A model generated the notes under the pieces. The model saw only the letters and a list, made by a program, of their open reading frames with translations. It had not been told where the DNA came from and made no database searches. A program made the translations under genes and the position numbers. From positions 1 to 52,871 of the IMG/VR virus record IMGVR_UViG_3300025718_000009: 52,871 nt of DNA; one strand, given 5' to 3'. Positions 1 through 21,423 of this stretch are shown here, one piece after another; the first letter of the stretch is position 1; each line of letters starts with the position of its first letter. This DNA is from a virus. Lineage: Duplodnaviria; Caudoviricetes.

Positions 1-127
1 AATCAAACAGTTGCGTCAAGGTGAATTTGATCTTTTTGTGAGTACGACGATCTTGGAACGCGGTATCACCTTGCCAGGGATACAAGTGGTGGTTCTAGGG
101 GCAGATCATCCTGTGTTTGATGAGCGT
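1..127 (+). pseudogene. comFA: comFA (DEAD/DEAH competence helicase), upstream part, interrupted by the prophage; begins before the window
   Basis: Frame from nt 2 reads IKQLRQGEFDLFVSTTILERGITLPGIQVVVLGADHPVFDER; TTILERG(I/V)T is the ComFA helicase motif V. Confidence 0.85.
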
Positions 128-1616
128 CATGCTTTGGAGCAAAATCGTTACCGTTATTTACCTTTAAATCAATGCTTATAATTCCGCTCTTATCTATAAT
201 TATGCTAGAGACAACCTTCTTGAGGATGCTGTTTTCTTCTTTAGGGCTTAGTTCTCCGTTTCCGATACTTCTAACCATTCGCAATGATGAAGCTAGGTTT
301 TCGGTATTAATATTCTTAACCTCGGATGACCTTAACTGCTTATTAAACTCATCTTCCCTATTTGACAATGCTTGTAATTCTAAATCTATCTCTTTTTTCT
401 TTTTTAAAAGCTCTTCCTTGGTCCAATCTTCATCCATATACAGATCAAGTATCTTACTTTTTCGATTCAATAACTTTTCACGCATTGCGCTTATTTCAGC
501 AAAATCTTTCGCAGAGGGTAAGATTGTTCTGGGGGTTCCTTTGTGCTCCATTAACTCCTTTATATAATCGGCGTTACCCACCATATCAAGCAGTCCTTTT
601 GTCACCATAGCGTTTACTATGGGTAGCTTGTGCCTAACCCGGCATGCTGGATCGTAGGGCCTGTGAAGATAGGTTAGGTAGACGTGTTCACCGTCCTTAG
701 AATTATAGCGCTTAATTCCTACCCTTAATTTCTTGAAACATTCTCCGCATACCAATAACCCGGTTAATAGATAGTTTACTTCGTGAAAATACTCAGCCTG
801 ACCGCTAGAACGTTGGGTGGAAATGGCTTTCATTTTTTCAAACTGTTCTTGAGTAATATAAGGGCCACTTCCGTCTTCCCAATTTATCTTATGAGTTAAC
901 GTTTCGCCCGCTATGGTCTGTTCGTAATACCCTGTGTGGGATGTATTAAACATAATTCTATAAATGATATTTCCTGAGAATTTACCTTCTCTTCTTGTTT
1001 TATAGCCAAGAGATACTAGCCTTTTTCCTATTGCTGAAAATCCCAAACCATCCAAGTACCAATTAAACATAAGTTTTACCACGGCTGCTTCCTCCGGTAC
1101 CACTCTCCATTTATTCGTTTCACGATTGTAAGCTGTGCCAAAGGGAGCCTCAGATGCAAAATAGGTTCCAGCTCTATGAGCAGCCTTTCTGCCCATAGAT
1201 GTACGCTTCTTGATCTTCTTCATTTCCCTGTTAGCTAATAAATTAAAAAGATCGGCTAAAAAGCGATCTTCTTCATTATCTAAATTTATTTCAGAGGTTG
1301 GTGTAACTAGCTTTATACTCATCTTTGCTAATGAGTTAGCCAGGTATGCCCAATCTAACTGTTCGAGGCGGGAAAGTCTATCTTGCTCAAATAAAAGGAC
1401 TTTCCCAAAATGCCTTTTCTCTGCATCGACTAATAATCTGTCAAGCTCCTCACGATCCGAATCTGCTCCGGATTCTCCAAGGTCAGAATAATAGTCAAAT
1501 ATTTCCCAGCCACGAGAATTGGCATACTCCGTTAAGATGCGCTTCTGCTCTCGCGGGGAATAATTATCTGCCTGCTTCTTTGTTGATACCCTAATATAAA
1601 TTGCAACTGTGTCCAT
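66..1616 (-). CDS. Large serine recombinase (phage integrase); 3' end crosses attL
   Basis: YIRVST catalytic motif, DRLSR, recombinase domain, zinc ribbon LLVCGEC, coiled coil; ATG at 1616 follows AGGGGTG RBS (ORF track starts at 1625). Confidence 0.95.
   Translation of the reverse strand: MDTVAIYIRVSTKKQADNYSPREQKRILTEYANSRGWEIFDYYSDLGESGADSDREELDRLLVDAEKRHFGKVLLFEQDRLSRLEQLDWAYLANSLAKMSIKLVTPTSEINLDNEEDRFLADLFNLLANREMKKIKKRTSMGRKAAHRAGTYFASEAPFGTAYNRETNKWRVVPEEAAVVKLMFNWYLDGLGFSAIGKRLVSLGYKTRREGKFSGNIIYRIMFNTSHTGYYEQTIAGETLTHKINWEDGSGPYITQEQFEKMKAISTQRSSGQAEYFHEVNYLLTGLLVCGECFKKLRVGIKRYNSKDGEHVYLTYLHRPYDPACRVRHKLPIVNAMVTKGLLDMVGNADYIKELMEHKGTPRTILPSAKDFAEISAMREKLLNRKSKILDLYMDEDWTKEELLKKKKEIDLELQALSNREDEFNKQLRSSEVKNINTENLASSLRMVRSIGNGELSPKEENSILKKVVSSIIIDKSGIISIDLKVNNGNDFAPKHDAHQTQDDLPLEPPLVSLAR
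117..127 (+). repeat. attL core TTGATGAGCGT
   Basis: Identical 11-mer at 52745-52755; comFA coding stops matching here. Confidence 0.93.
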
Positions 1617-1636
1617 TATGCTCACCCCTGATAAAT

Positions 1637-1768
1637 TTAACTTATCATCTTCGCCTCCGGATATTCCTCTATGAAATCACTAATGAATCTCACGTCAACA
1701 AACACCTTGTCACCGAGGAATAACCAACGTGCACCAGTATCCTTTAGATCACAGATGATAACTTTCAT
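1637..1768 (-). CDS. Small 43-aa protein upstream of the integrase (candidate antirepressor or directionality factor)
   Basis: MKVIICDLKDTGARWLFLGDKVFVDVRFISDFIEEYPEAKMIS*; GGGAGAG RBS; not in ORF track. Confidence 0.6.
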   Translation of the reverse strand: MKVIICDLKDTGARWLFLGDKVFVDVRFISDFIEEYPEAKMIS

Positions 1769-1815
1769 TTGTTCGCTCTCCCATCCTTCTCAACAGAACC
1801 TATGTTATCATATAT

Positions 1816-1829
1816 CGAACATAAGTTCT
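1816..1829. promoter_or_regulatory. LexA/DinR (Cheo) box CGAACATAAGTTCT
   Basis: Matches Firmicute GAAC-N4-GTTC; next to minus-strand -10 TATGAT (1807-1812). Confidence 0.7.
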
Positions 1830-1906
1830 ATAGAAACTTGCTTATATTACTTCGCGAACAACGAAATTATATCCTCTAAATTATGACAATTTATTCCGAC
1901 AGAATA

Positions 1907-2305
1907 CTACCGTTTACTCGCTTTTCTCGCTTCTTTCTCGTGTAATTCAATTAGATTTTTTAGGAATTCCAATGAGAAAATTTCCTTCTCGTCGACTTCC
2001 TGTATTAACGAGATGTAGGGAAGGCTTTTTTGCTTAGCAACATATTCCTTAATGCTGTCAGGAAGTTCCACTTTATTTAAGTCGGCTAGTTGCTCCAATG
2101 TCATATTGTGCTTATCTAGTAGGTAAGATGAGCTAACGCCTAATGCCTCGGCCACCTTCTCTAATGACTTTATCGACATATTACATTTCCCGTTCTCCGC
2201 ATCTGATAAATAAGAAAGTGATAACCCTGTGATATTGTGTAGATCAGTTAATGAAATGTTTCTTATTCGTTCTCTTACATATTTGATCTTTTGGCCGTAC
2301 TCCAT
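1907..2305 (-). CDS. CI-like XRE HTH repressor (no S24 peptidase domain)
   Basis: HTH LTDLHNITGLSLSYLSDAENGKCNMS; divergent from cro-like gene. Confidence 0.85.
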   Translation of the reverse strand: MEYGQKIKYVRERIRNISLTDLHNITGLSLSYLSDAENGKCNMSIKSLEKVAEALGVSSSYLLDKHNMTLEQLADLNKVELPDSIKEYVAKQKSLPYISLIQEVDEKEIFSLEFLKNLIELHEKEARKASKR

Positions 2306-2414
2306 AATTCACCGTTCCTTTATATACGAACTAGTTTATAGTATATACTTATAAGTACGATATTAACGGATGGAATTCCTTTTTAAAAATATCGAAATAT
2401 CTTTGTTTGATGCC

Positions 2415-2443
2415 TTGACAATTCGATATTATCGAATTATACT
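2415..2443 (+). promoter_or_regulatory. Early rightward sigmaA promoter with palindromic operator as spacer
   Basis: TTGACA-17bp-TATACT; AATTCGATA-T-TATCGAATT palindrome 2420-2438; degenerate copies at 2356-2370 and 2508-2522. Confidence 0.85.
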
Positions 2444-2538
2444 AAGATTAATGAATCACCCGCTAGCAAAAACCGGAACAAAGCGGGAATATTTTTTACC
2501 CTAACAATTCGGTATTATTGAAGAATGGAGTTGAGAAC

Positions 2539-2736
2539 ATGACGGTTGGACACCAAGTTCGTAAATACAGAAATTTAAAAGGATGGAATCTTCGTGAACT
2601 TGGAAAACGCTCAGGATTAGCCATCAGCACATTGTCAGACATTGAAAATGACAAGGCAGCCCCGAGTATTAAAGCACTTAGAAGAGTAGCCGAAGCACTG
2701 GGAGTGGATATTGACTATTTATTTAAACAGGAGTGA
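2539..2736 (+). CDS. Cro-like XRE regulator
   Basis: LRELGKRSGLAISTLSDIENDKAAPS HTH. Confidence 0.85.
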   Translation: MTVGHQVRKYRNLKGWNLRELGKRSGLAISTLSDIENDKAAPSIKALRRVAEALGVDIDYLFKQE

Positions 2737-2742
2737 TTTAAG

Positions 2743-2937
2743 TTGTTGACACTTCAAGAAGAGATTCAATATCACGCAACGATATGGTCCGAGATACCGG
2801 AGCTACTAGCGAGATTAGTTAACACCGGGAAAACGGATGATGCCGTGAAGCTTCTGGTTCAGTGGGGAACACACACTAAAGTGAATACGGAACTTTGGAA
2901 AGAAGCCACTCAATTATTGAAAGGAGAGAGCGCATGA
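2743..2937 (+). CDS. Hypothetical phage protein
   Basis: AGGAG RBS, coupled to neighbours. Confidence 0.6.
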   Translation: MLTLQEEIQYHATIWSEIPELLARLVNTGKTDDAVKLLVQWGTHTKVNTELWKEATQLLKGESA

Positions 2938-3140
2938 GAATACTAATGCCCATCTGCCGGCTGCTACTCAAGTCAGATCGCATTAAGCGAGTAATCTTCG
3001 CTCATGAAGTTCAGCAGAACGACCAACGATACCACGAGCACTGGGCGAAGTTAATGCATAGTGGTTCCACAGTTCGAGAGGACGATAAGCCTGTTGAGCG
3101 TCCAGTGTTCATCGATTCAGTAAATTGGGGAGGAATGTAG
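2934..3140 (+). CDS. Hypothetical phage protein (HEHWAxLxHSG motif)
   Basis: AAGGAG RBS; motif shared with 9453-9722. Confidence 0.6.
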   Translation: MRILMPICRLLLKSDRIKRVIFAHEVQQNDQRYHEHWAKLMHSGSTVREDDKPVERPVFIDSVNWGGM

Positions 3141-3142
3141 TT

Positions 3143-3565
3143 ATGTTAAAGCAAACAACCCGTGAAAAACTCCATGCCCTAGTCCAGCATCCCGACTTTG
3201 CTTATATCTCCGTTGAAATCGGGGACAAGAAAATGTTTCACATCATGGACAAGGGAAACCCTGTTTTTTACACAGATGTCAATATTCACACCGAAGGAGA
3301 ACTATCGCTGGATCGACTTATTAAATTAATGCCGGAGATTTCGATTACTGAACGCGTACCAAACAGGGTGGAGCATTCGGATCACATTAGTTTTGGGGAA
3401 TACGCACGTGGGACGCTGGAAGACGCAAAGTTTAATTATTGGTCTACGTTCTCGACGATGCCAAAAGAAATAGCTCCCGCGCCAACGGAAGCCATAGGAA
3501 AAATTATCTTACCTGATTCTACCACAGAATGGACCACTGAGGAAATCTTAAGGCAGGAGGGCTGA
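3143..3565 (+). CDS. Hypothetical phage protein
   Basis: GGAGG RBS, operon context. Confidence 0.6.
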   Translation: MLKQTTREKLHALVQHPDFAYISVEIGDKKMFHIMDKGNPVFYTDVNIHTEGELSLDRLIKLMPEISITERVPNRVEHSDHISFGEYARGTLEDAKFNYWSTFSTMPKEIAPAPTEAIGKIILPDSTTEWTTEEILRQEG

Positions 3566-3569
3566 GTAG

Positions 3570-4475
3570 GTGGATAACGCTTTAACAATTACGACAGTTA
3601 ATAATTATCCGGCCGAGACGTTTAACCGGCTTTTCCCCGCAACAATGACTGAGATCAGTCCCTTGCACAAAATTATGGTAAATATCGTTCAGATCAATAC
3701 GGATATCACGGCTAAGGAAGTATACAAGCAGAAGAATGGAGAACTCAGCCTCACAAAAATAGCCTGCATGAAATTGATGACAGCGGCTAACGTGGTTATG
3801 GAGGATTCTAAGTCAATTTTACCGCAAGGGTGCCAAAGGTGTATCGAAGTATCACGATCAACACGACTTGCGCCGCAGTGCAACGGATGTCCGACTAAAG
3901 AAGATGTTGCTTATCAAGTATCAATACTTGTTCCAGAACCATCAGGTGGTCACCGTAGATATATTGCCACAAAGGAAGTTACTAAAAAGGATACCCAGGC
4001 TAAGAGTAATCCGCTAGAACACATGGGTGCTAATTGTGAGACCAAGGCATTACTCAGGGCGCTGCGTGCAGGACTAGGACTCAAGGGATCATATACACCG
4101 GCTGAGTTATCAAAGCCTTTTGCGGTCGCGTTAGTGGTATTGAACACAACAGATCCAGACATGAAGGCAGCACTGATTCAGAGATACGCTGCCGGCCAGG
4201 ATGCTCTGTTTGGAGGATCCTCGGAAAGCCATCAATTACCAGCTGGGAATCTCCAGCAACTCCCTGAGGGAACGATCAATGGTGAAGTTAAGGTTGTTGG
4301 TCCGGATCCAGAGGACGACAACGATGATATACCATGGGATCAGGCGAAGTGTGAAGTATGTCAGAAGCCAATTCAGGCCGTTGGTGATTGGACCGTAGCA
4401 ATGATAGTAGATCATCTGAAAGCTAAGTATGGAAAAGTCGTTTGTGAATCATGCAGAATGGGAGGAGCGAAGTAA
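3570..4475 (+). CDS. Putative recombination protein with two CxxC pairs and C-terminal zinc finger
   Basis: CQRC/CNGC, DDDIPW, CEVC...CESC; precedes SbcCD. Confidence 0.5.
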   Translation: MDNALTITTVNNYPAETFNRLFPATMTEISPLHKIMVNIVQINTDITAKEVYKQKNGELSLTKIACMKLMTAANVVMEDSKSILPQGCQRCIEVSRSTRLAPQCNGCPTKEDVAYQVSILVPEPSGGHRRYIATKEVTKKDTQAKSNPLEHMGANCETKALLRALRAGLGLKGSYTPAELSKPFAVALVVLNTTDPDMKAALIQRYAAGQDALFGGSSESHQLPAGNLQQLPEGTINGEVKVVGPDPEDDNDDIPWDQAKCEVCQKPIQAVGDWTVAMIVDHLKAKYGKVVCESCRMGGAK

Positions 4476-7400
4476 TGAGAATTTTACACACTGCCGATTG
4501 GCATATTGGGGAATTATCCGGTCCAGTAATTGAAGGGAAGAATGCACGACTTCAAGATACCTTGAAATGCGTAGACCACCTAGTTGAGTACGCACAAAGA
4601 GAGCAGCCGGATGCGATTCTCATCTCTGGTGATCTCTTCGATAAGTCAAAACTATGGGGAGACAGTATGTTGTCGCTTATCGATCAAGTAGCACAGCGGT
4701 TACGCGCTCTTGCTGGAATTGCTCCCACGGTTTTAATGTTTGGGACTGATAACCACGATAGTATGAAGGCTTTTCAGAATATAAGCGAGATGCGTATAGC
4801 GGATTTACATGTTTTGATGAATCCCGATATTTTCACAATTAATACAGAGTCTGGGCTATTACAGATTGCCTGCGTTCCAGGCTTCGATAAAGGATACTTC
4901 CGAGCAAAGTTCCCTGGCATGGCGCCGGCGGATGAACACATGATGTGCAGCCAATTCCTTGGAGACATGGTCAACGGACTAAGCGCACAACTGGATCCGA
5001 CAGTCCCGAGCGTATTAATGGCTCATTACACGGTCGTTGGATGCGAACTAGACAATGGACAGCACGTATTTACTCAGTCCGAAGTTGTTTTGCCTAAGGA
5101 AGCACTCGCCGGGAGCGCGTTCGACCTAGTGGCATTGGGACATATTCACCGGGCACAGAGAGTCGAAGGAATTGAGAAGCCAGTGTTCTACTCCGGTCCT
5201 GTCAATGGGATCACGTTTAACGAAGAAGGGCAAGACAAGGGATTTTGGATGCACGAGATCGGTACGATCGAAACTGACGAGGAATCAGAGATGCCTAATT
5301 ATGTAGAGTCAGAGTTCATTGTTACGCCGTACAGGAAATTCTTAACGTTAAAGGCTGACTTCACAGAATCGATTAACTTACCTCTTGATCTTAATATGGA
5401 ACTTGTTCATCCCTTATTTCCGAACACAGTCGGGAGGATCGTCCGCCTAGAATATGAATGCACGGAAGAACAGAAGCCCATACTTAATCACAAGGAAATG
5501 GAGTCATTAATTAAGTCCGGTGGAGCATTCCATGTATCAGAAGTTAAGGCTAAACGGATCATCACGGCCCTAGCAAAACAGGATCTAACTGAAACGTCTG
5601 GGCCTCTGGAAAACTTAGCAGCCTGGTTAACTGTCGAAGGGTTCAGCATAGAGGATGCAGTTCCTGTCCTCGAACTATCAAGGCCATTAATAGACACAAT
5701 CTCAGCCAAGATGCCAACCGGCACGCTGAGCGGAGTATTCGAACCACGATCGCTGGAAGTTAAGAACTATCGGTCATATCTTGGAGAAACGTTTAATTTT
5801 AAAGACATCTTCTTTGCCACTGTGAACGGCCCTAATGGAATTGGTAAATCTAGTTTCTTCATGGATGCGATTTCAGATTGTCTTTATGAGGAAACACGCA
5901 CAGGGATAACTGGCAGCTGGATAACAAACGGTCAAACTGATGGAATGATGCAATTCGAGTTTTCAATGGGAGTAACCAATTGGCGAGTGATCCGGACGAG
6001 GAGCATTAAGGGCAGCGGGAAGATTACCCTGGCGTTGCAGGAGCTCTTGTCTGATAAGTGGGAAGATCGATCGGGCACTACAACCAGACAAACTCAGGAA
6101 AAAGTCGAAGCCTTACTGGGTATGGATTGCTCCACGTTCCGTTGCACAGCCTTAATCATGCAAGATGCCTATGGATTATTCATGGAAGCCGATAAGGAAG
6201 CTCGCATGGGAGTCCTGGCTAATCTCCTTGGGTTGAGTATCTACGATCAATTAACTGATTTAGCTAAGGCGAAGGTCACGGAGTTGAATCGGAGTCTTAC
6301 GATATCCAAAGCGAAATTAGAGGATTTGGACGAAAAACTTAAGGCTAAACCGGGAGTTATGGAAGAGGTAAATGTTTACGAATCAGACCTTAATCAAGTC
6401 GCAGCGGATATCACCGCCAAGGAAAGCGAGATAAAGATTGCCGAAGAATTAGTCCGGGTCCTTAAGGGTAAGGCTGAGAAGGTTGAGGAGCTCAGGAAGC
6501 AAGGTAGTGTGCTTAATTATGAGGTAGCAAGCAAGCAAATAGATATCTTGGAGAATCAGAAACAGTCTGAGAGGGCCACTCAGATGTTGGCTAATGAAGA
6601 ACAGATTATTGCTAAGGCTAAAGAGTATGTAACGGTAAAGGATCAGGTCTTGGTGCTGGAAACTAAAAAACCTAAGTGGCTGGAGATTGGAAATAACCGC
6701 GTGAAAATTGCCCGTGACATAACCTTATTGGATCTACAAATAAAAAGACTTGCTCCACAGATAAGTGAACTGGAGAAAGTATTGGCGAGCAAACCTGAAT
6801 TGGACATAGCTGCCGATCGGTATAAGTCAGAGGTCATTAGACTTGAGGTAATGGATGCTCTGTCAGCTAAGGCTGCGGATATGAACCAATTAATCATGAA
6901 TGCAGAGAAGGACACTGATAGGACAGGGGAAGAGATAGACCTTAAGCGAGTCGCCCTTAAGCAAAAGCAATCAAAGCTTGAGGAACTAATTAGAAAGTCC
7001 GCTATGCTGGCAAATGCAAACTGCATTGATCCCGATAACGCTAAGTGTGCTTTTTTGGCTGATGCCCAGAAGGCTAAGGCTCAACTTCCAGTGGCCGAAG
7101 AGGAAATCAAGATTGCTGTGCAAGAAATTACCGACATGCATGAGACCCGTAAGCCGTTTTTACAAATCGTGGTGGACTTAGAAATACAGAACAAGGCTAT
7201 AGGTTACGAGAGAATCCGGGATGGGCAAGCTCATTATGACCTAAGGAATCTAGTAAATACCCTACGTCCCAAGGCAGAACTCGCAGGTCAACTAGACTCC
7301 AAAGCTGAGTTACTCAAGGGACTTCTCGAACAATCGTATGACAGTACACAACGCCAAATTGACTTAGGGTCACAACTTACAGACATAACTTTTCAGTGTG

Positions 7401-8323
7401 TTGCCCTGGACGGTGAACTAAAGGAATTACCAATACTAGTTGAACGTCTCCCCAAACTCCTGCAATGGGTTAGTGCTAAAGAAGAACTCCCAGCAGCACG
7501 CCAACTCATATCTTCTGTTTCTGACATCATCAAGGGCATTGAGTCAGACATAACCGCTAAGCAAGTCCAGATGAAGGCTATCGACGATGAGATAGAGCTG
7601 TGCCGTGCTGAAGCCGCTAAGTTAACAGATGCCACACGAAGCGTCCAGACGTCATACGACTATCTAAAATACCTTCAAGGCAAACAACTCGAATTCCACG
7701 AGAAGATCGGAGCCCTAACCTCTCAACTAAAAACACTCGCCAAGTACGATGCGGATCGGCTGCAGCTCATTTCTGACATGGCACCAACGGCTAAGGATCT
7801 TACCAGTTATCAAACTCTCACCAAAGCCTTTGGTCTCGATGGAATCCCTTTCTCCATCGTTCGCTCGGTAGTGCCGGAATTATCCTACATGTCCAACGAT
7901 ATCTTAGGCCAAATGACTGGCGGGAAGATGGCACTCGAAATGAGCACGGAGCGAGTCCAAAAGAATAAGAAAGAAGTTAACGCCCTGGAGGTGTGGATCA
8001 CAGACTACAGAGGCCGAATCCCTTATGGCGATCGTTCCGGAGGGGAGAAGGTTAAGGCTGCGCTGGCAAATGCGTTTGCTCTCGCTGACCTCAAGGCCCG
8101 GAGAGTTGGAATCCAGCTGGGGATGATGTTTGTGGATGAACCGCCCTTCTTAGATGCAGCCGGTGCTGAAGCTTACTGTGATGCTCTGGAGCAATTAAAT
8201 TATAGGTACCCGAATATGAGGGTTATCGCAATCTCTCACGATCCGGCCATGAAGGCAAGATTCCCGCAACAAATCGACGTGGTGGATATGGGCGACGAGG
8301 GAAGTAAAGTGAGAATCGCGTAA
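4475..8323 (+). CDS. SbcD-SbcC (Mre11-Rad50) fusion nuclease/ATPase
   Basis: HTADWH, GDLFD, NHD, LGHIH phosphoesterase motifs; Walker A GPNGIGKS, coiled coil, SGGE signature, VDEP Walker B, ISH. Confidence 0.92.
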   Translation: MRILHTADWHIGELSGPVIEGKNARLQDTLKCVDHLVEYAQREQPDAILISGDLFDKSKLWGDSMLSLIDQVAQRLRALAGIAPTVLMFGTDNHDSMKAFQNISEMRIADLHVLMNPDIFTINTESGLLQIACVPGFDKGYFRAKFPGMAPADEHMMCSQFLGDMVNGLSAQLDPTVPSVLMAHYTVVGCELDNGQHVFTQSEVVLPKEALAGSAFDLVALGHIHRAQRVEGIEKPVFYSGPVNGITFNEEGQDKGFWMHEIGTIETDEESEMPNYVESEFIVTPYRKFLTLKADFTESINLPLDLNMELVHPLFPNTVGRIVRLEYECTEEQKPILNHKEMESLIKSGGAFHVSEVKAKRIITALAKQDLTETSGPLENLAAWLTVEGFSIEDAVPVLELSRPLIDTISAKMPTGTLSGVFEPRSLEVKNYRSYLGETFNFKDIFFATVNGPNGIGKSSFFMDAISDCLYEETRTGITGSWITNGQTDGMMQFEFSMGVTNWRVIRTRSIKGSGKITLALQELLSDKWEDRSGTTTRQTQEKVEALLGMDCSTFRCTALIMQDAYGLFMEADKEARMGVLANLLGLSIYDQLTDLAKAKVTELNRSLTISKAKLEDLDEKLKAKPGVMEEVNVYESDLNQVAADITAKESEIKIAEELVRVLKGKAEKVEELRKQGSVLNYEVASKQIDILENQKQSERATQMLANEEQIIAKAKEYVTVKDQVLVLETKKPKWLEIGNNRVKIARDITLLDLQIKRLAPQISELEKVLASKPELDIAADRYKSEVIRLEVMDALSAKAADMNQLIMNAEKDTDRTGEEIDLKRVALKQKQSKLEELIRKSAMLANANCIDPDNAKCAFLADAQKAKAQLPVAEEEIKIAVQEITDMHETRKPFLQIVVDLEIQNKAIGYERIRDGQAHYDLRNLVNTLRPKAELAGQLDSKAELLKGLLEQSYDSTQRQIDLGSQLTDITFQCVALDGELKELPILVERLPKLLQWVSAKEELPAARQLISSVSDIIKGIESDITAKQVQMKAIDDEIELCRAEAAKLTDATRSVQTSYDYLKYLQGKQLEFHEKIGALTSQLKTLAKYDADRLQLISDMAPTAKDLTSYQTLTKAFGLDGIPFSIVRSVVPELSYMSNDILGQMTGGKMALEMSTERVQKNKKEVNALEVWITDYRGRIPYGDRSGGEKVKAALANAFALADLKARRVGIQLGMMFVDEPPFLDAAGAEAYCDALEQLNYRYPNMRVIAISHDPAMKARFPQQIDVVDMGDEGSKVRIA

Positions 8324-8372
8324 ATGCGATTCTCGTCACCATTAACTAAAAAGTGCACAAGGAGCTGATCCA

Positions 8373-8552
8373 ATGACTTGTAAGTTCACCAGAGACAAGG
8401 ATGGAGCGCTGATGATCGTCTGCAGTAAGGACGTCGTGGATTATGAGATGGTCGTACTGAGAAAAGCGAACCAGTGCAATAAATGGGAAGTATGTAAGGC
8501 TTGCGAGTCATATAAGAAATGCCAAAAAGTATGGCTGGAAGGAAAGCGCTAA
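8373..8552 (+). CDS. Small Cys-rich hypothetical protein (59 aa)
   Basis: AAGGAG RBS; MTCKFTRDKDG...CKACESYKKC; not in ORF track. Confidence 0.55.
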   Translation: MTCKFTRDKDGALMIVCSKDVVDYEMVVLRKANQCNKWEVCKACESYKKCQKVWLEGKR

Positions 8553-8666
8553 TCTATCTTAACTATATTTTTTTACCACCCGCTAGGACAAGTTATCAAT
8601 CTTCACATCTTATGCGGGCGATTAAGACTTAGAAGCGATTCGTGCAAATAAAGGGAGGGCAACACC

Positions 8667-8921
8667 ATGGGTATTAATTTTAAGGCAACAATCAAGCGAG
8701 GAGATCCAATGCCTAGCCAATGTGAGATATGCGGATCTGTTAAGGCCATCACCAAGAGTGATCGGCGTATAGTCCAAGCCAACGAAGCTCAACTAAACAA
8801 ATGTTATGACGAAAAACCGGAAGATTGGAGATCTAAATACCAACCATTCACTAATTCCAAAAGGACTATTATCCCAACATGCAAAAACTTTTCTCACATG
8901 AGAACTTGCACTTATCGATAG
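8667..8921 (+). CDS. Hypothetical protein
   Basis: GGGAGG RBS; CEIC motif. Confidence 0.5.
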   Translation: MGINFKATIKRGDPMPSQCEICGSVKAITKSDRRIVQANEAQLNKCYDEKPEDWRSKYQPFTNSKRTIIPTCKNFSHMRTCTYR

Positions 8922-8935
8922 AGGAGGGCAACACC

Positions 8936-9187
8936 ATGTTAACTCCAACATGTAAATGCGGCCAAGAAATGCACTTCCCCAAACGTAAAAACAACTCCAT
9001 GTGTACTACCAAGGATTGTGGTATGAGATGGGAGCGTAGGCCAGAAGGGTTTTGGGCGGTTGGGCTTTTTACTCTCTCGTTTACCCCAATACTCACAAGC
9101 GAGAAAGCTTGCTCGGTTAGATCGCGTAAGGATCGGTACTCGAATTACCCTAAGTCGAAGAGGCGCAAGGGGCGAAGAATTCCGTGA
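8936..9187 (+). CDS. Hypothetical zinc-ribbon protein
   Basis: GGAGG RBS; CKCG...CTTKDCG. Confidence 0.55.
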   Translation: MLTPTCKCGQEMHFPKRKNNSMCTTKDCGMRWERRPEGFWAVGLFTLSFTPILTSEKACSVRSRKDRYSNYPKSKRRKGRRIP

Positions 9188-9459
9188 CAAATCATGCGGT
9201 AAAGCTTAATTACTACGCATTATGTATTTGCATTCTATCCGAAAGAATCCCGGAAGAGGCATTTCGGAACATGGATCTCATGGATGGCCCAATGCAATTC
9301 AACAAAACGAGTGTTAATGACATTTGGAAATTCAAAAAGGACCATACATGGAAGCAGGTTGGCAATCGCTATGGTGTCAGCGGAGATGCCATAAGGAGAA
9401 GGGCTATTCGATTCCAGGAACATCAGGAAATTTCAAGAAAGGCGGGATCAAGATGCTGA
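9184..9459 (+). CDS. HTH-containing phage protein
   Basis: TWKQVGNRYGVSGDAIRRR. Confidence 0.6.
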   Translation: MTNHAVKLNYYALCICILSERIPEEAFRNMDLMDGPMQFNKTSVNDIWKFKKDHTWKQVGNRYGVSGDAIRRRAIRFQEHQEISRKAGSRC

Positions 9460-9722
9460 AGAAAATACTCAAGCGTATTCGTCGAGAACTACTCAAGATC
9501 GATTGGGTCAAACGCGAAGTGGAGGCATACCAAACAGAAAAAGAAAAACAGGCTCACCACGAACACTGGGCGAGACTCCTGCACTCAGGCTGCAAAGTTC
9601 GCAATCTTAAACCGGAGAAGCTAGATATCTGTAGCACTCTGACAATTGTTGAGAGTGATGGCATGGTCCAGGAGTATCTCGGGGGGGAAGGTGATAGGTC
9701 AAGGGTTTATCGATTCTGTTAA
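9453..9722 (+). CDS. Hypothetical protein, paralog of 2934-3140
   Basis: HEHWARLLHSGCKVR. Confidence 0.55.
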   Translation: MLKKILKRIRRELLKIDWVKREVEAYQTEKEKQAHHEHWARLLHSGCKVRNLKPEKLDICSTLTIVESDGMVQEYLGGEGDRSRVYRFC

Positions 9723-9836
9723 CTGGGGGGTGGAAAAAGAAATGTCCGCCGGTGCGCTAACACCAACGGACTGCTAAGGAATTTATTCAATTAAAGTATA
9801 CCACAATCGTCCATAAATACGGAAGGTGGAGCAGTC

Positions 9837-10277
9837 ATGATAAAAACCTCTTTCAACGAAACCAAGGCACTTGAACTCTATCATTCCCATAAAACCGACA
9901 CTGAGATAGCCAAGGGGGTCAACGCTCTCACTATTACCATAAAGGGATGGCGCAACCGCAGGGGCCTGGCAAATATATCTCCCGGAGCAAGGAAGCATAC
10001 AAACCATGTAAGTTCTTCCGGAGGAGGTTCCCCAGGAGCAGGGGTGGATTACCGGATGGCCCTTGATCCGGTTCGAGCCAAAGATATGAACCAATTTCTC
10101 CGGTCGTTACTTTGGGCAAGCGATAAGGCCAAGGAGTGTGGAGTACATCCAAATGTTGATATTTTCATGCGCTGCTGGATTGGACTTCCAATAAGCGAGG
10201 ATGGCAAGAAGCGGCAACGTAGAGACAATGCGAGGAGTCGACGCAGCGCTGGAATATCAGAGGTAAGGGGGTTATGA
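9837..10277 (+). CDS. HTH-containing phage protein
   Basis: TDTEIAKGVNALTITIKGWRNRRGL. Confidence 0.6.
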   Translation: MIKTSFNETKALELYHSHKTDTEIAKGVNALTITIKGWRNRRGLANISPGARKHTNHVSSSGGGSPGAGVDYRMALDPVRAKDMNQFLRSLLWASDKAKECGVHPNVDIFMRCWIGLPISEDGKKRQRRDNARSRRSAGISEVRGL

Positions 10278-10495
10278 GTTTTGTAGTAGCGAAGAACAGG
10301 CCCAGAAAGAACTCCAAAACTAGGGCGAAAGCTCCATGTAAGTGCCTAACGTGTGCAAAGTCGAGCAGAGAGACATTCGAGGGTAGCGAGTTATTGATTT
10401 GTAAAGATGAAGCTTGCGATATGAAGTGCGGTAAATGCACAGAAAGACCTAATAATGCTTGCGGATATAAACCGCTAGAGGAGGTATCGGCATGA
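10274..10495 (+). CDS. Cys-rich hypothetical protein
   Basis: Multiple Cys; overlapping start/stop coupling. Confidence 0.55.
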   Translation: MSFVVAKNRPRKNSKTRAKAPCKCLTCAKSSRETFEGSELLICKDEACDMKCGKCTERPNNACGYKPLEEVSA

Positions 10496-11043
10496 GTCAA
10501 ATGAAAATCGCGGGAAAAATCCACGAAGCCATGAAATCAATTCCCATAGGATACACTCACGAAAATATCAACGAATGTTTAATCGCTCAGAAACTTATCA
10601 CTCAGACGGAATTCAAAATAGTGGAGTCGAAGGAGCGAACGTCCCGGAACGGAGTTGTGTGGCAGGTCGTAATAGTTTCGTGTCAGTTAACGATCATCGA
10701 CACTGAATCAGATGAAACCATCATTAACGTCGCGCTTGGTGCGGGTACCGATACAGGAGATAAGGCAGTCGCAAAGGCTCAAATGATGGCGCGAGAATAC
10801 GTGTGGATGGCTGCACTGAATACTACGATTGAAGGTGTACCGTTTCTCGAGGCTGTGAGTGAACCCGAGATCATCGTAGAAACGCCAACGTCCAAACTCA
10901 TGGCCGAAGTTACAGCTCTCTGGAGATGGGATCCTGCTCTATTCCAAGATTACTTTATGAAGCGATTCCAGAGACCTATTGATCAGTTGAATATTACCGA
11001 GCTGAGCGTTGTCAAATCTGAATTTGAGAATTACGGGAGGTAA
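10492..11043 (+). CDS. ERF-family single-strand annealing protein
   Basis: GAGTDTGDKAVAKAQMMAREY resembles the ERF GxGxDxxDKaxxkA motif. Confidence 0.7.
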   Translation: MSQMKIAGKIHEAMKSIPIGYTHENINECLIAQKLITQTEFKIVESKERTSRNGVVWQVVIVSCQLTIIDTESDETIINVALGAGTDTGDKAVAKAQMMAREYVWMAALNTTIEGVPFLEAVSEPEIIVETPTSKLMAEVTALWRWDPALFQDYFMKRFQRPIDQLNITELSVVKSEFENYGR

Positions 11044-11045
11044 TA

Positions 11046-11345
11046 ATGACAGATTTAATGGCGAAGGCCATCACGGAAATGTTCAGCAGCAAGCCAGAGG
11101 ACGCAGTAAAAATATCCGACGGTTGGGATCGAGTCCTCTGTCCACACGTGCCAGAATTAAGCCTAGTCGATGTTTATTTCAACGGGTCGAAGGGGATAGA
11201 AACCCAAGTCACCGAGATCGAATTACGGATGTATGGATTCGCAAACATTCGAGTTGGCCGAATTGGTGAGTGTCCGAGGTGCGGGATTGTCTATTACTCA
11301 GAATTGAAAGGGGAACCAAATGCTTATTACAATCCTGAGCGCTAA
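11046..11345 (+). CDS. Hypothetical protein
   Basis: GGGAGG RBS; CPRC. Confidence 0.55.
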   Translation: MTDLMAKAITEMFSSKPEDAVKISDGWDRVLCPHVPELSLVDVYFNGSKGIETQVTEIELRMYGFANIRVGRIGECPRCGIVYYSELKGEPNAYYNPER

Positions 11346-11646
11346 CAAGGAAATGCAGACGATCCATACGGGAAATGGGAAAACTGAAAACTACTCGCTC
11401 AGCGTAACCTACGAAGCAGAAGTGGTCTTGGAGGATTGCAGGATACGAGGAAATTTCACTTTTTTGGAAAAGGAAATGGAGGATGAAGCAATCACCAAAG
11501 CGAGAATAGCCGCTTTATTTATCGAGATGGAGGACAGTAGTTGCGAGAGTTGCGCCTACAACCCCCAAGAAAAACTAGACCAACTAACGTGCGGATGCTG
11601 CCTAGGCCATAGCCGATGGATTAGAAAAATGAAGGAGGAAGATTAA
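11320..11646 (+). CDS. Hypothetical protein
   Basis: Operon context. Confidence 0.5.
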   Translation: MLITILSANKEMQTIHTGNGKTENYSLSVTYEAEVVLEDCRIRGNFTFLEKEMEDEAITKARIAALFIEMEDSSCESCAYNPQEKLDQLTCGCCLGHSRWIRKMKEED

Positions 11647-11647
11647 A

Positions 11648-12319
11648 TTGTTAAACCGAGTCGTACTTATCGGACGCCTTACGAAGGACCCAGAACTTCG
11701 CTACACTCCAAATGCTATTGCCGTAACAAACTTCACCCTGGCTGTGGAACGTAATTTTAAGAACGCAGCCGGCGAAAAGGAAACAGACTTCTTTCAATGC
11801 TCAGTGTTTAAGCAGCTGGCCGAATTATGCGCAAACTATCTCTCCAAAGGAAAACTCGCTTCGATCGATGGACGAGTCCAGATCAGAACTTACAACGATA
11901 AAGATGGAAAGAAACAATGGGTGACTGAGATCATCGGGGAAAACGTTCAGTTCTTAAGCCCGAAGGACGCTGAGGCTCCTGCACAGACCACGCAGACACA
12001 GCAACAAAATAGTCAACCACCATATAATGCTCCACCGACTGGATCCCCGATGGGAGCGCCACCGTCATATGGACAGCAGCCACAATATGGGCAACCACCC
12101 GCGCAACCAGGTTACCCTGGACAGTTCACTCCTCCGGGATATGCTCCACAACAACAGGGACAATGGCAAGCACCGGGACCTGGTCAGCAACAACAATGGC
12201 AACAACCTAATCCGAACATGCCAAACCCAAATATGCCACCACAACAGGGTACCCCAGGTGCACTCCCTTCCGCACGATTCGGTCACGAAGTAAATCTAGA
12301 TGATGACATCCCGTTCTGA
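11648..12319 (+). CDS. ssb: Single-stranded DNA-binding protein
   Basis: MLNRVVLIGRLTKDPELRYTP OB fold; C-terminal DDDIPF. Confidence 0.95.
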   Translation: MLNRVVLIGRLTKDPELRYTPNAIAVTNFTLAVERNFKNAAGEKETDFFQCSVFKQLAELCANYLSKGKLASIDGRVQIRTYNDKDGKKQWVTEIIGENVQFLSPKDAEAPAQTTQTQQQNSQPPYNAPPTGSPMGAPPSYGQQPQYGQPPAQPGYPGQFTPPGYAPQQQGQWQAPGPGQQQQWQQPNPNMPNPNMPPQQGTPGALPSARFGHEVNLDDDIPF

Positions 12320-12324
12320 TCTGA

Positions 12325-13692
12325 ATGGAACTAAGAGATTATCAAACTGATCTAATCGAGGAGCTCCGGTATCTCATTCTTGCCGGCTCCTCCCGGATTT
12401 GCGCAGTGGCACCCTGTGGGTCTGGGAAAACCGTTCTTTTCAGTTGGATCACAGCGCAAGCAAGATCAAGAAATCAAAAAATACTTATTGTTGTCCATCG
12501 TCAGGAGCTCATCGAGCAGACATCAAAAACCCTGGACAAATTTTATATTCCTCATGAAGTTCTTAATTCGAAGAACATAAATTCGTGCGATATGCATGTC
12601 GCCAGTGTTTACACGTTATCTCGTCGGTTAAACAACTTTGAGAAGCCTCCTGACTTAATCATCCTAGACGAAGCTCAACACTGTGTAGCGAACACTTGGA
12701 GAAAGGTCATTGAGCACTTCCCAAATTCATTAATCATTGGATTCACAGCAACACCGGCGCGGTTATCTGGAGACGGACTAGGTGTAGTATTTCAAGCCCT
12801 GGCATTAGGTCCGAGCGTCAAAGAGTTAGTTAAAATGGGGAATCTTGCACCCTTCGAATACTTTTCCCCGCCGGTTGTCGCGGACTTCGCGGACTTAAAG
12901 GTTAAGTATGGAGATTATCAAGCATCAGACGTTGCTCTGAAGATGGACAAAAGTGAGATTATCGGTGATGTGATCGCGACATATCGAAGATTAGCAGACG
13001 GTAAGAGGGCAATTTGTTATTGCGCGAGCTGTGAACATGCTGAACATGTTGCGAAGGAGTTTAATCTTGCAGGGATCCCAGCTGCTTACATTGATGGGAA
13101 GACTCCGGATGCAATCAGAAAAACGGCAATTGAGCAATTTAGAACTGGGATCGTGAAGATACTGACAAACGTTGACCTGGTAAGTGAGGGATTCGACGTC
13201 CCAGCTATGGAAGCAGTTATTCTACTGAGACCAACTGAGAGTACAGCATTGTTTATCCAGCAAAGCATGAGGGCAATGCGCCCGGATCCTGATAACCCAA
13301 ATAAGGTCGCAATTATCATTGACCACGTTGGAAATGTGTATCGCCATGGTTTACCGGATGAAGATCGAGAGTGGACCTTGGAGGGGAAGCAAAAGAAACG
13401 AGAGCCTGGCGAGATTAAGATCAAGCAATGTCCAAAATGTTATTTCGCACATGTCCCAGCTCCTCAGTGTCCGAAGTGTGGGTTTGTCTATGAGGTGCAA
13501 GAGCAAGCCCCGATAGTGCAGACGAAGGGTGAGTTGTTGCAGATCAAGGACTTGGAGCGCAAGGATGCCAAGAAGGAAATATCGAAGGCGCGGACACGTG
13601 CTGAGCTGGAAAAGATCGCTATAACGCGGGGGTATTCTCTCCGGTGGGTCGATAAGATCCTGAAGGTTAGAAGTGGGCAGAGTTGGAGATGA
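12325..13692 (+). CDS. SF2 DEAD/DEAH helicase
   Basis: APCGSGKT, DEAQH, TATP, EGFDVP, C-terminal zinc finger. Confidence 0.92.
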   Translation: MELRDYQTDLIEELRYLILAGSSRICAVAPCGSGKTVLFSWITAQARSRNQKILIVVHRQELIEQTSKTLDKFYIPHEVLNSKNINSCDMHVASVYTLSRRLNNFEKPPDLIILDEAQHCVANTWRKVIEHFPNSLIIGFTATPARLSGDGLGVVFQALALGPSVKELVKMGNLAPFEYFSPPVVADFADLKVKYGDYQASDVALKMDKSEIIGDVIATYRRLADGKRAICYCASCEHAEHVAKEFNLAGIPAAYIDGKTPDAIRKTAIEQFRTGIVKILTNVDLVSEGFDVPAMEAVILLRPTESTALFIQQSMRAMRPDPDNPNKVAIIIDHVGNVYRHGLPDEDREWTLEGKQKKREPGEIKIKQCPKCYFAHVPAPQCPKCGFVYEVQEQAPIVQTKGELLQIKDLERKDAKKEISKARTRAELEKIAITRGYSLRWVDKILKVRSGQSWR

Positions 13693-13705
13693 GGGATGAG
13701 AGAAG

Positions 13706-15013
13706 ATGATGGATAAAAACCCATATTTACCAGGTACCCCAGAAGAGTACATACAGGCCAATATGGGTTTAGCTCAATTAATCGCTTGGAAGTTTTTCAG
13801 GGCCTCCAAGGATAGAGATATTGATGATCTAGTGGGAATTGCTTATCACGGACTAGTCAAATCGTATCAACGATTTGATCCCACTAATCGTCTCGGCATA
13901 GATGCTAAGCCGATAAAATTCAGTACGTATGCTGGGTCAATGATTAAGGGCTATATTATGACCTATCTTCGTCAAGTTAACCGTCCTATTCATCTTGGAA
14001 GAAGGGGAATAGATTTAATCGCTAAGATCAATATTGCAGGTCTAAACGGCAACGAAACGATTCAGGAAATCGCAATCAAAGCTGGAATTAGCGTGGATGA
14101 TGCCAATGAAGCAGTTATGGCGAGTATAGCCGCGAACCCGGATACTCTAGAACGCAAGATTGCAATGGATGATGGCGGTGGACATGTTACCTTAGCTGAC
14201 ATGATAGGCGAAAAAGTTGAGAGCAATGACGATCAGGAAACAATAAAGGATTTTACAGCTCAATTAACCCCACGGCTTTACGAGGTTTATAAATTGCGAA
14301 TGGTTGAAGAACTGTCACAACTTGAAGCATCTAAGGTTATGGGTTTTACTCAATCTTACTTTTGCCGCCTTGAAGCGAAACTTATGGAAGTAGCCCGACA
14401 GTATGGATCAAAGATGAGGCTGGCTGGCGGAATTAAAAGTATAAATGAGGAGGAAGAAATTATGTCAAGTATTGAACAACGCGAAAACAGTAAAAAATTA
14501 CGCGGAGAGATCACGACTATTGAACAGTTCGAGTCCATTGGATCATATGCTGAGGTTGCTAAAAAGTATCTAGTCAGTGTTGCAACGTCCCATGCGCTCA
14601 AGATGTCCCTGAAGGATAAGAAGGTCAGGGAGGATGATAGTTTTGTTCCTTCTCCAGATCCCTCTATTGAACGTAAGGCGTATGAGGAACCAATCTTGGA
14701 AGAGATCGTCCAGGTACATCCAGAGGTAGAGATTCAGGTAACTCCTGAAGAGGTATCATCTGTGGAAGAAAAATGGTGCTTAAGTCCAGAAGGGATAGAA
14801 GAGGCACGTAATATGTCAAAGGAACTTCTATACGACAAGCGACTAGATGATCCCTTTATCGAGCCAGAGCCACTGCTGGTAAAGAAAGAGCGAACATCTG
14901 AAGAACTATTAAGAAACATTAAGTCTGATATAAGAGAACTTCACAAAATGCATACTTATCGCTCTGAAATGAGATTCCAAGCACAGCTCAGGGGGTTAAT
15001 TGAAGAATGCTAA
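13706..15013 (+). CDS. SigF/SigG/SigB-like sigma-70 factor with C-terminal extension
   Basis: DDLVGIAYHGLVKSYQRFDP, KFSTYAGSMIKGYI, region-4 HTH SQLEASKVMGFTQSYFCRLE. Confidence 0.85.
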   Translation: MMDKNPYLPGTPEEYIQANMGLAQLIAWKFFRASKDRDIDDLVGIAYHGLVKSYQRFDPTNRLGIDAKPIKFSTYAGSMIKGYIMTYLRQVNRPIHLGRRGIDLIAKINIAGLNGNETIQEIAIKAGISVDDANEAVMASIAANPDTLERKIAMDDGGGHVTLADMIGEKVESNDDQETIKDFTAQLTPRLYEVYKLRMVEELSQLEASKVMGFTQSYFCRLEAKLMEVARQYGSKMRLAGGIKSINEEEEIMSSIEQRENSKKLRGEITTIEQFESIGSYAEVAKKYLVSVATSHALKMSLKDKKVREDDSFVPSPDPSIERKAYEEPILEEIVQVHPEVEIQVTPEEVSSVEEKWCLSPEGIEEARNMSKELLYDKRLDDPFIEPEPLLVKKERTSEELLRNIKSDIRELHKMHTYRSEMRFQAQLRGLIEEC

Positions 15014-15034
15014 AGAATTCGAGGGGGATAAGAC

Positions 15035-15523
15035 GTGAACAAGTTTGAACGACTGACTAAGAAGTTTGGAGATAAAACAGTATTGCCGATGTTACCAATG
15101 CCATTAATACAATCCTTTCAAAACCTTGATGATTTCCACATTGTGAGAAGGGAACTCGAAACTGAAATAATTAGGCTTTCGGAATATGAGGATTCAGGCT
15201 TATCTCCTTCTGAAGTTGCCGAATTTGTTCAGGCCAAGGCCGAAGGTAGGCTGATAGTACTGCCTTGTAAAGTTGGGGAATCTTATTACGGGGTATGCCA
15301 AGAAATGCATAACGTAAAAAGTAAATGGAAAATGCAACGATGGGTTGAGACAGGCAAAATACTTAACCTTCATGTTACTGCTGAATTATCAACCACGGAG
15401 GCTGAAGTTAAGCAGCATCAACGAGATATTGACGAACACTCAAGTTATTGGTTTACGGGAGAAAACGCCAAGGCAGAGGCCGAAGCAGCACTAAAGAAGC
15501 TTTGGGACGAGGGTAGCCAATGA
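15035..15523 (+). CDS. Hypothetical phage protein
   Basis: RLSEYEDSGLSP...EGRLIVLPCKVG is a common phage motif. Confidence 0.65.
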   Translation: MNKFERLTKKFGDKTVLPMLPMPLIQSFQNLDDFHIVRRELETEIIRLSEYEDSGLSPSEVAEFVQAKAEGRLIVLPCKVGESYYGVCQEMHNVKSKWKMQRWVETGKILNLHVTAELSTTEAEVKQHQRDIDEHSSYWFTGENAKAEAEAALKKLWDEGSQ

Positions 15524-15882
15524 ACGAACACGATATTCAAAATAAAATCAGAATTGATTTTTCCCGACTCATTCCCGACGGCCTTCTCTTTCGCACTAAT
15601 GTTGGACAGGCTTGGACAGGATCACGAGTCAAACATAACTCAGACCATAGCGTGACAATCTTTGATGCCCGTCCATTCAATACAGGTCTTCCTCCTGGCT
15701 TCTCCGATCTCTTCGGAGTCTTACCGGGAGGCAAAGCACTATTCCTCGAAGTCAAGACTCCGAAGGGTAGACCGACTGATGTGCAGACTAATTTTCTTGT
15801 GCAGGTAAAATGCGCGGGAGCAGCCGCCGGTGTGGCAAGGTCGATCGAGGACGTTATTAAAATTATTGAGGTGAATAAATGA
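15520..15882 (+). CDS. VRR-NUC domain nuclease
   Basis: E..IQ, GFSDL, FLEVK..KGR...Q. Confidence 0.9.
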   Translation: MNEHDIQNKIRIDFSRLIPDGLLFRTNVGQAWTGSRVKHNSDHSVTIFDARPFNTGLPPGFSDLFGVLPGGKALFLEVKTPKGRPTDVQTNFLVQVKCAGAAAGVARSIEDVIKIIEVNK

Positions 15883-16058
15883 ACGCTATGAAATCAATGG
15901 AACTACTTAGGAAATATGCAAAATGCCCAGAGTGTGGGAGCGAAGTTCTTGGAAATGGAAAAGGTACTGTTAATATTACCGACGATACCTTCACTCGCAC
16001 TTGCAAATGCGGATGGAGCGTTAAGCGTAAAGTTCACGAAGCTCCTAAAAAGCTATGA
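15879..16058 (+). CDS. Small zinc-ribbon protein (DUF3797-like)
   Basis: KYAKCPECGSEVLGNGKG...FTRTCKCGW; not in ORF track. Confidence 0.65.
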   Translation: MNAMKSMELLRKYAKCPECGSEVLGNGKGTVNITDDTFTRTCKCGWSVKRKVHEAPKKL

Positions 16059-16099
16059 TCTATTTATTGATTAACGGTGGTTGAGAGAAGGGGTAACCA

Positions 16100-19015: not shown

Positions 19016-19045
19016 TGTTGAGAGTTAGAGAATTTATTCACAACT

Positions 19046-19325
19046 GTGGTCTCAGAGTGGTCTCACCAGTGGTCTCACTAAAAAGCTCTAGAACCCTTGA
19101 TATGACTATGTTTTATATACTGAGACCACTAAGACCACTGAGACCACTACATTCTCTATATAAAAAAAGTGTTTAAAGAGTAATTGATAACCTTTCCCAT
19201 TTATCTTAAGTCAAATATATATAGTGACCCTGTTTATTTTGAGTGGTCTCACCCCAAAAAACGCCCTAAACCATTGGGAGAGTAAGGACAAGCCTGAGAC
19301 CACTCATATTGACTCAGTGGTCTCA
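19046..19325. repeat. GTGGTCTCA/TGAGACCAC iteron cluster, putative replication origin
   Basis: Copies at 19046, 19057, 19069, 19243, 19317 (+) and 19121, 19131 (partial), 19139, 19295 (-), with AT-rich spacers. Confidence 0.8.
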
Positions 19326-19338
19326 CTAAGGAGGTTTT

Positions 19339-19725: not shown

Positions 19726-19737
19726 GAGGAATGAACG

Positions 19738-21161: not shown

Positions 21162-21165
21162 GTCG

Positions 21166-21195: not shown

Positions 21196-21231
21196 TCCTA
21201 ATAGGGCATGCCCTGGACCAAATTGTCAAAT

Positions 21232-21416: not shown

Positions 21417-21423
21417 GTAGGGG

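Follow-up and report, generated by a model that had tools for sequence, protein, structure and literature searches.

The arrangement in which an attachment site lies within the gene of its own recombinase is already in print for DsiB, a serine recombinase of Dehalococcoides (2011), and for the Int of Mx8. DsiB is the large serine recombinase of the Dehalococcoides ssrA-specific genomic islands. McMurdie et al. (2011, PMC3146451) describe DsiB alignments that diverge in length and sequence over the overlapping part, and write that the gene might be fully functional on the circular form only. For IntP/IntX of the Myxococcus phage Mx8 (Tojo 1996; Magrini 1999), a review places attP within int (PMC6070905). 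The mycobacteriophages BPs, Brujita and Charlie carry attP inside their repressor gene, and a demonstrated degradation tag is lost on integration (PMC3694055); the first-pass annotation of the present DNA had described the BPs precedent correctly. The archaeal 'suicidal' SSV-type integrases are described as having att inside int, in a compact int-att module (PMC8371274). Among phages that target competence genes, the pneumococcal Int2b phages interrupt comGC, and blocking transformation has been proposed as a way for an element to escape deletion (PMC7600539).

The window (the whole stretch of 52,871 bp that we analysed, identical in extent to the viral record) holds a 52.6-kb siphovirus-like tailed-phage prophage whose attP overlaps the gene of a large serine integrase. 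DsiB belongs, as described, to non-phage islands at the tmRNA gene that carry a second small recombinase, whereas the present element looks like a complete tailed prophage and sits in a protein-coding target; compared with DsiB, the documentation here extends to both isoforms, a relative's free-form genome, the empty site and DNA-level conservation of the tail. As in Mx8, where integration is said to give a recombinant int gene with a new 3' end, the int gene is rebuilt at its end by integration. However, Mx8 Int is a tyrosine recombinase whose specificity is reportedly modified (PMC6070905), while the enzyme here is a serine integrase that exchanges just 7 residues of a predicted disordered tail. 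The BPs type shares with this locus a recombination event in a coding region that sets a C-terminus, and rep and int genes on one strand. It differs, by its published description, in having attP in the repressor gene, a tyrosine integrase and no RDF; here attP lies in int, 1.8 kb from a repressor-like gene. That repressor candidate, an HTH_3 (cI-like) protein, is encoded at 1907..2305 (minus strand), upstream of int on the same strand, and attP does not lie within it. In the SSV type, described as tyrosine recombinases, integration splits the integrase gene and inactivates it, whereas here the catalytic and DNA-binding domains stay intact. The Int2b phages, as reported, are likewise serine-integrase prophages that disrupt a late competence gene (ComFA-like here, by annotation), with comGC as target and a pneumococcal host in place of a ComFA-like helicase gene and Desulfosporosinus; their integrases are distant relatives at ~26% identity. 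Phrase searches of the literature found nothing on this integrase clade, and nothing was found on comFA together with prophage, integrase and attB.

The prophage body spans 128..52744. A PHROG scan of 63 ORFs identified SbcCD-like, SSB, helicase, primase and small and large terminase genes, together with portal, major head, tape measure, Dit and endolysin genes; the right arm consists of minus-strand genes, an FtsK/SpoIIIE-like gene among them. The borders are marked by an 11-bp repeat, TTGATGAGCGT, which occurs exactly twice in the window, as the attL core (117..127) and the attR core (52745..52755). The number of copies expected by chance was 0.01, and none of 100 shuffles contained at least two. 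The repeat is short and was absent from the 20 largest repeat families shown by a repeat search of the window, so it carries weight by its context and not by its length.

The context is an interrupted host gene. Its 5' part lies at 1..116 (plus strand) and encodes a helicase C-terminal domain of a ComFA-like SF2 helicase (Pfam Helicase_C, 8.2e-06); its 3' part lies at 52756..52871 (plus strand) and begins in a Q..GR.GR stretch, which we take to be motif VI. In the lysogen the left helicase frame continues into phage DNA and reaches a stop at 179-181. When the 116-base flanks outside the two repeats were joined in silico, they gave a single open helicase frame reading ..GADHPVFDERALVQMAGRVGR.., so that precise excision would repair the gene, as is expected of a regulatory-switch ('active lysogeny') prophage. 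An intact homolog of 567 aa (P0023) was 100% identical to the left fragment, differed at 1 of 42 residues from the right fragment, and ran uninterrupted through the junction position. With the 42-residue left fragment as query, 89 of 94 candidates were longer proteins of ~565-590 aa, nearly all from Desulfosporosinus. Several sources annotate these homologs as ComFA or 'helicase required for DNA uptake', and others as DEAD/DEAH helicases only. No ComFA-specific model matched the fragments (searched against Pfam, NCBIfam, PDB and ESM Atlas) or P0023 (NCBIfam, Pfam and PDB). Since these family and structure searches returned generic SF2 helicase domains only, the name 'comFA' depends on the source annotation.

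The empty attB exists in nature, since Logan contigs from three peat-metagenome runs (X1, X2 and X3) cross from the left flank into the right flank, with positions 98-127 joined directly to the right flank. The intact allele is thus present in the same samples. X1 is possibly the window's own source, and the X3 contig spans the empty site with one base changed. Contig depth was 64.2 for intact attB vs 8.76 for the attL branch in X1, and 45.9 vs 6.8 in X2, which is ~7x in favour of attB in both. By this crude contig-depth measure, lysogens make up roughly one-seventh of the peat Desulfosporosinus population. The X1 and X2 contigs had no attP branch; contigs lose rare variants, and the missing branch therefore says nothing about excision.

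The integrase ORF spans 66..1625 on the minus strand (519 aa from the GTG at 1625). Homologs start at the position equivalent to the ATG at 1616, which gives a 516-aa integrated (attL) form at 66..1616 (P0021). Pfam matched PF00239 Resolvase (1e-27, residues 7-154) and PF07508 Recombinase (2.7e-12), and a PHROG integrase family matched residues 4-492 at 3.9e-83. The match to PF13408 Zn_ribbon_recom (0.0067, 17.2 bits) was under the 25.3 cut-off; the predicted model has strands at 291-320 and long helices at 372-434, and C293, C296, C328 and H321 are invariant. The serine of ..YIRVST.., presumably the catalytic nucleophile, was invariant in 22/22 sequences.

The crossover lies inside the int frame, and the integrated and free forms encode different C-termini. 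In the integrated form, KHDAHQ is followed by a host-derived end (66..116, minus strand) of 16 codons and a stop at 66-68, read antisense to the helicase gene, and the protein terminates in ...KHDAHQTQDDLPLEPPLVSLAR. In the rebuilt attP the frame continues through 52744-52721, and KHDAHQ is followed by the 7 phage residues DVRVTLL, giving ...KHDAHQDVRVTLL before the stop. This free form is on record as a 507-aa protein (P0001), 100% identical, from an independent 52,414-bp contig; P0001 and P0021 fall in a common 90% cluster and come from different assemblies. A repeat of only 11 bp should not confuse a k-mer assembler, and reads spanning attP must therefore presumably have existed. These results bear out the structural part of the first-pass annotation in all but one detail. 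It had placed the att site inside the integrase gene, which agrees with TTGATGAGCGT lying within the int frame and with both rebuilt reading frames. It had read the prophage gene through attL into helicase antisense, and its predicted attP-form end is identical to the recorded P0001. Its statement that the two DNA states make different proteins with different 3' contexts also holds, both protein forms being recorded. It had further described the prophage tail as nonpolar-ending, which was wrong since the last residue is Arg.

We located the centre of attP from its symmetry. In 3/3 free-form sequences the best ungapped dyad had its centre at the AA just 3' of ACGCTCATC on the int strand, with arm symmetry at 12, 14 and 15 of 22 positions in the three attP forms. 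On the plus strand of the window this centre is the TT at 117-118; in the relative L003 it is AC. In the window's rebuilt attP the ungapped dyad of 12/22 is a value reached by 149 of 52,825 window positions. The symmetry was clearer in the relatives L001 and L006, or with a 2-nt shift noticed by eye. Also by eye, CAGATCAT was present in both attB sites at -15 to -8 from the centre. From the dyad centre and the attB comparison, the putative crossover dinucleotide (TT at 117-118; AA on the int strand) would fall in the Gln503 codon. The P arm (128..149, minus strand) lies inside int, carries CAAAG and CATC-side motifs and encodes ..APKHDAH.., in which the arm gives P-K-H-D-A-H. The P' arm (52721..52744, minus strand) provides the last 7 int codons and the stop in the free phage and gives D-V-R-V-T-L. 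The int stop lies where the P' arm ends on its outer side, 24 nt past the dyad centre, and attP occupies ~46 bp on the last codons of int. The conserved residues K..H-Q and D-V..T-L correspond to the two mirror halves of the DNA dyad.

The same organization was found in relatives. L001 (int 73% identity), located centrally in a 65-kb viral contig, has its free-form genome in one contiguous piece, with an unbroken attP. Its int terminates in ..HAHQDVWVTLPQIAAR, also given as ..KYHAHQDVWVTLPQIAAR, and is followed on one strand by a U-run hairpin and then by a small gene and one for an FtsK-like protein, which is the order of the window's right arm read inward from attR. The int of L006 (76% identity) ends in ..HQHVRVTLR. 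L003 (genome G001, 71% identity) is a ~61.7-kb prophage that lies in a gene for a PAS-domain protein and not in the helicase gene; both borders are on one contig and share a 6-bp core, CACAAT, and rebuilding attB restored an open frame of 203 residues. Its rebuilt free form shows the clade pattern x-V-R-V-T-L-x with the stop at the same position, and its integrated form ends in 7 unrelated host-antisense residues. The int-attP overlap is thus genuine and is inherited within this integrase clade. Further out, L004 (48% identity) has a candidate dyad of 14/22 (as high at 6 of 7436 positions) that differs from the clade's dyad and is followed by a hairpin. This candidate lies at the identical distance of 24 nt from the stop, which suggests that the layout predates the close clade. 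In L009 (49% identity) the best dyad was unconvincing (11/22). Among phage records, 930 matched the integrase, all below 60% identity, and the listed matches reached at most ~28%. Contig scans of genomes gave no relative of the integrase and no cultured-genome example. Of the 80 metagenome loci kept, five were followed up; the other 75 were at ≤33% identity bar one 80-residue fragment at 46%.

We consider the exchange of C-termini to be a by-product of a compact int-attP cassette in a temperate Desulfosporosinus phage that leaves the action of the recombinase unchanged, and we assign this reading a probability of about 70%. The large serine integrase would have inserted the phage into the conserved Q..GR.GR-coding stretch of the ComFA-like helicase gene. 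In this clade the ~46-bp attP takes up the last int codons, with the P arm, the crossover at Gln503 and then the P' arm with the stop. Given a crossover in the Gln503 codon and a P' arm that encodes the rest, the 7-residue tail must be replaced on integration. Integration thus swaps the last 7 residues for host-antisense residues (16 here) and parts int from its likely terminator. The exchanged piece would be a disordered appendix that is not conserved and takes its sequence from the needs of the DNA site. If the state of the genome has any effect, the altered 3' end of the transcript would be a likelier source of it than the peptide.

At the 3' end, a hairpin with a U-run (52643..52674, minus strand) is the likely int terminator of the free phage. 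The first-pass annotation had put a terminator about 47 bp past the free-form stop, and a terminator-like hairpin does begin there, 46 nt past the stop (52674-52643). However, its fold in the window was weak (z -1.6; 12 of 200 shuffles as good), and a consensus terminator scan did not flag it. Equivalent structures 3' of int scored z -3.4 in L001 (0/200) and z -2.3 in L004 (3/200). Integration places the hairpin 52 kb from int. A scan of 1-2600, where just 65 nt of host DNA follow the int stop, found no terminator-like site, and a consensus scan found no leftward promoter for the repressor-int strand. The repressor-like gene, a conserved 43-aa ORF (1637..1768, minus strand) and int are arranged head to tail on a single strand. 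This small ORF is 65% identical to an L001 ORF in the equivalent position, and family searches with it gave no match. Given the removal of the hairpin and this gene order, lysogen int may be expressed from a transcript that is not terminated and continues, in antisense, into the truncated helicase gene; int is probably co-transcribed with the repressor-like gene.

These observations bear on a switch at the level of RNA or DNA, in which int without its terminator would give mutual antisense int and helicase transcripts, or integrase bound at att would act as a roadblock. The hairpin and U-run 3' of int in three free forms, the lack of a terminator-like site in 1-2600 and the single-strand gene order all speak for it, and autoregulation of KplE1 IntS through att-overlapping DNA is reportedly a known logic of this kind (PMC2951348). 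However, the window includes only 65 nt of host DNA past the stop and a host terminator may sit just beyond, and the window's own hairpin is weak. We regard such a switch as unlikely to be the explanation of the layout, although it can coexist with the by-product reading.

The first-pass annotation had suggested that the swap could change the stability or directionality of the integrase, and we looked at the exchanged peptide in four ways. In an AlphaFold model built with 22 sequences (mean pLDDT 72.8, pTM 0.35, which is moderate), the last predicted strand is at 483-487 and residues 491-519, including the host-derived end, have pLDDT <50; low confidence of this kind is not proof of disorder. 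The swap after Q503 takes place 16 residues beyond the last predicted strand. One homolog of 487 aa (P0006) ends directly after that strand. Among 22 homologs (44-80% identity), conservation was lost after about residue 490. Tails in this alignment ranged from 4 to 33 residues and showed no relationship to one another beyond the 62-80% clade, and a group at 51-53% identity ends four residues short of the position equivalent to the crossover.

Codon evolution in the close clade gave a different picture for the DNA and for the peptide. Synonymous divergence was 0.69-0.87 in the gene body vs 0-0.27 in the att-overlapping codons, while non-synonymous divergence in the att codons (0.09-0.23) was equal to or above that of the body (0.08-0.18). 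Three phages agreed at the third position in 11 of 14 att codons, whereas the maximum among 479 other windows of 14 codons was 9, so that none of them reached 11. This comparison covers 3-4 sequences and 7-14 att codons, with relatives at ≤49% identity left out and L007 and L008 omitted as duplicates of L001 and L003. The close-clade tail is therefore probably conserved as a DNA site and not as a peptide. The ends of the tails also vary: eight free forms end in L (one), P (three), R (three) and K (one), and two integrated forms end in R and Q. No non-polar degron-like end was shared among these ten forms. The ssrA tag ends in Ala-Ala, and none of the ten tails has such an end. Structure, conservation, codon evolution and end residues together indicate that the exchanged peptide probably does not matter.

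A switch at the protein level would have the free or the host-derived tail alter integrase stability, RDF dependence or synapsis, so that the enzyme senses its integration. Both isoforms exist, and all 8 free forms of the 62-80% clade keep the tail pattern x-V-x-V-T-L-x. Published precedent points the same way in part, since Mx8 int gains a new 3' end and its specificity is reportedly altered (PMC6070905), and the possibility was raised for DsiB by McMurdie et al. (PMC3146451). Against this stand a tail that is predicted to be disordered and lies outside the conserved fold, conservation that resides at synonymous sites and mirrors the DNA dyad, and variable end residues (L, P, R, K). The integrated tails, moreover, are arbitrary host antisense, 16 aa here and 7 aa in L003. 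Equivalent tails in other enzymes are described as dispensable or disordered: in phiC31 integrase, 21 residues after the last strand are reported to be non-essential and C-terminal RDF fusions to be active (PMC5737554), and 28 C-terminal residues of SPbeta integrase are reported as disordered in cryo-EM maps (PMC11722253). A stop position that varies randomly among homologs had been named as evidence against the proposed switch. That is what the integrated forms show, their stop being determined by the adjoining host DNA, but the free-form stop is not random: it comes after +7 codons in 6/8 and +12 in 2/8 of the close clade. The open frame across the P' arm, with an immediate stop in 6/8, could mean that the peptide has been under selection in addition to the site. 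Taken together, the evidence favours a by-product over a protein-level switch, which we judge distinctly unlikely, and an RNA-level effect is possible. The stability or directionality switch originally proposed is unsupported, given a swap beyond the last strand at pLDDT <50, conservation that ends at ~490, a tail that is conserved at the nucleotide level and mirrors the attP dyad, and end residues that vary.

It is also conceivable, if quite improbable, that the overlap is kept so that the integrase reports its own genomic state, with x-V-x-V-T-L-x and a terminated mRNA made in the free phage only. The candidate dyad of L004 suggests an old, maintained layout and leaves room for a function. 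If the overlap did serve such reporting, the prophage would make a host-tailed enzyme from an unterminated transcript antisense to the helicase gene, which would tune integrase level or RDF responsiveness, and the integrase would be tied to the transcription of a competence gene. An artefact, with a wrong att assignment or a read-through ORF caused by a chance repeat or an assembly chimera, could be suspected from a core of just 11 bp outside the 20 repeat families shown, but is almost certainly not the explanation, as the helicase frame is restored exactly with the intact gene on record, contigs of three runs cross the empty site, the free-form protein comes from an independent assembly and both junction types are confirmed in relatives.

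The locus is a clean, fully documented example of a layout that has been noted but never tested for serine recombinases; each of the four att states is recorded, either itself or through its product. The locus also shows a way to separate site-driven from peptide-driven conservation in overlaps of this type. For gene calling, it means that the C-termini of prophage serine integrases can be part host, and that the true phage end may be at the other border. For integrase mining, the int stop codon can point straight to attP in this clade. For the ecology of the host, it means that about one-seventh of peat Desulfosporosinus genomes, by contig depth, carry a prophage in a putative DNA-uptake helicase gene.

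The integrase gene is preceded by a 43-aa ORF on the minus strand (window 1637-1768), which lies between the integrase gene and the repressor-like gene. This ORF showed 65% identity to an ORF in the equivalent position in L001, a relative genome in free form, gave no family match and could encode either a small regulatory protein or a directionality factor. At the other end of the window, a block of minus-strand genes makes up the right arm (46110-52617). The block includes an FtsK/SpoIIIE-like gene (50687-52057, minus), an overlapping 236-aa ORF without a family match (50092-50802, minus), an M23-type peptidase gene (49168-49881, minus) and small membrane-like ORFs, also on the minus strand. 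The free phage has this block directly downstream of the integrase gene and on the same strand. The gene order in L001 (small gene, FtsK-like gene, 246-aa ORF) matches that of the window's right arm.

Three further phage ORFs of the window gave PHROG matches. The early region carries a 1290-aa ORF (4451-8323) with PHROG matches that are SbcD-like in the N-terminal part and SbcC-like, and the product looks like a fused SbcCD-type nuclease. A 435-aa ORF (13706-15013) matched PHROGs of phage RNA polymerase sigma factors (6.9e-38 for phrog_351). Downstream of the endolysin, a 555-aa protein (ORF 41972-43639) is matched in its N-terminal part by PHROGs of unknown function and contains an 18-nt tandem repeat (42766-43179) whose translation gives the hexapeptide P-T-E-G-x-G about 18 times.

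In two runs, the host flank had about sevenfold the contig depth of the attL branch (window 1-200), and the prophage appears to be absent from most cells of this population.

Among the integrase relatives, P0006 (487 aa, 79% identical) stops directly past the last conserved strand (..IDLKAR) and has no att-overlapping tail; it may represent either a further, third type of junction or truncation of the gene. The gene of the 48%-identical integrase in the relative L004 carries a candidate dyad (L004 4477-4524) with 14 of 22 symmetric arm positions and a sequence unrelated to that of the close clade. Its TT centre lies exactly 24 nt ahead of the end of the stop codon, an arrangement shared with the close clade.

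The 71%-identical integrase of a second prophage, L003, targets a gene for a PAS-domain protein, which differs from the window's target. Its junction regions lie at L003 4490-4530 and L087 60-100 (record G001), and the identity common to both borders is only 6 bp. The central dinucleotide is AC, versus AA in the window. The L003 attB also contains CAGATCAT, at the same spacing from the centre as in the window's attB. The difference between L003 and the window looks like natural target switching inside one integrase clade.
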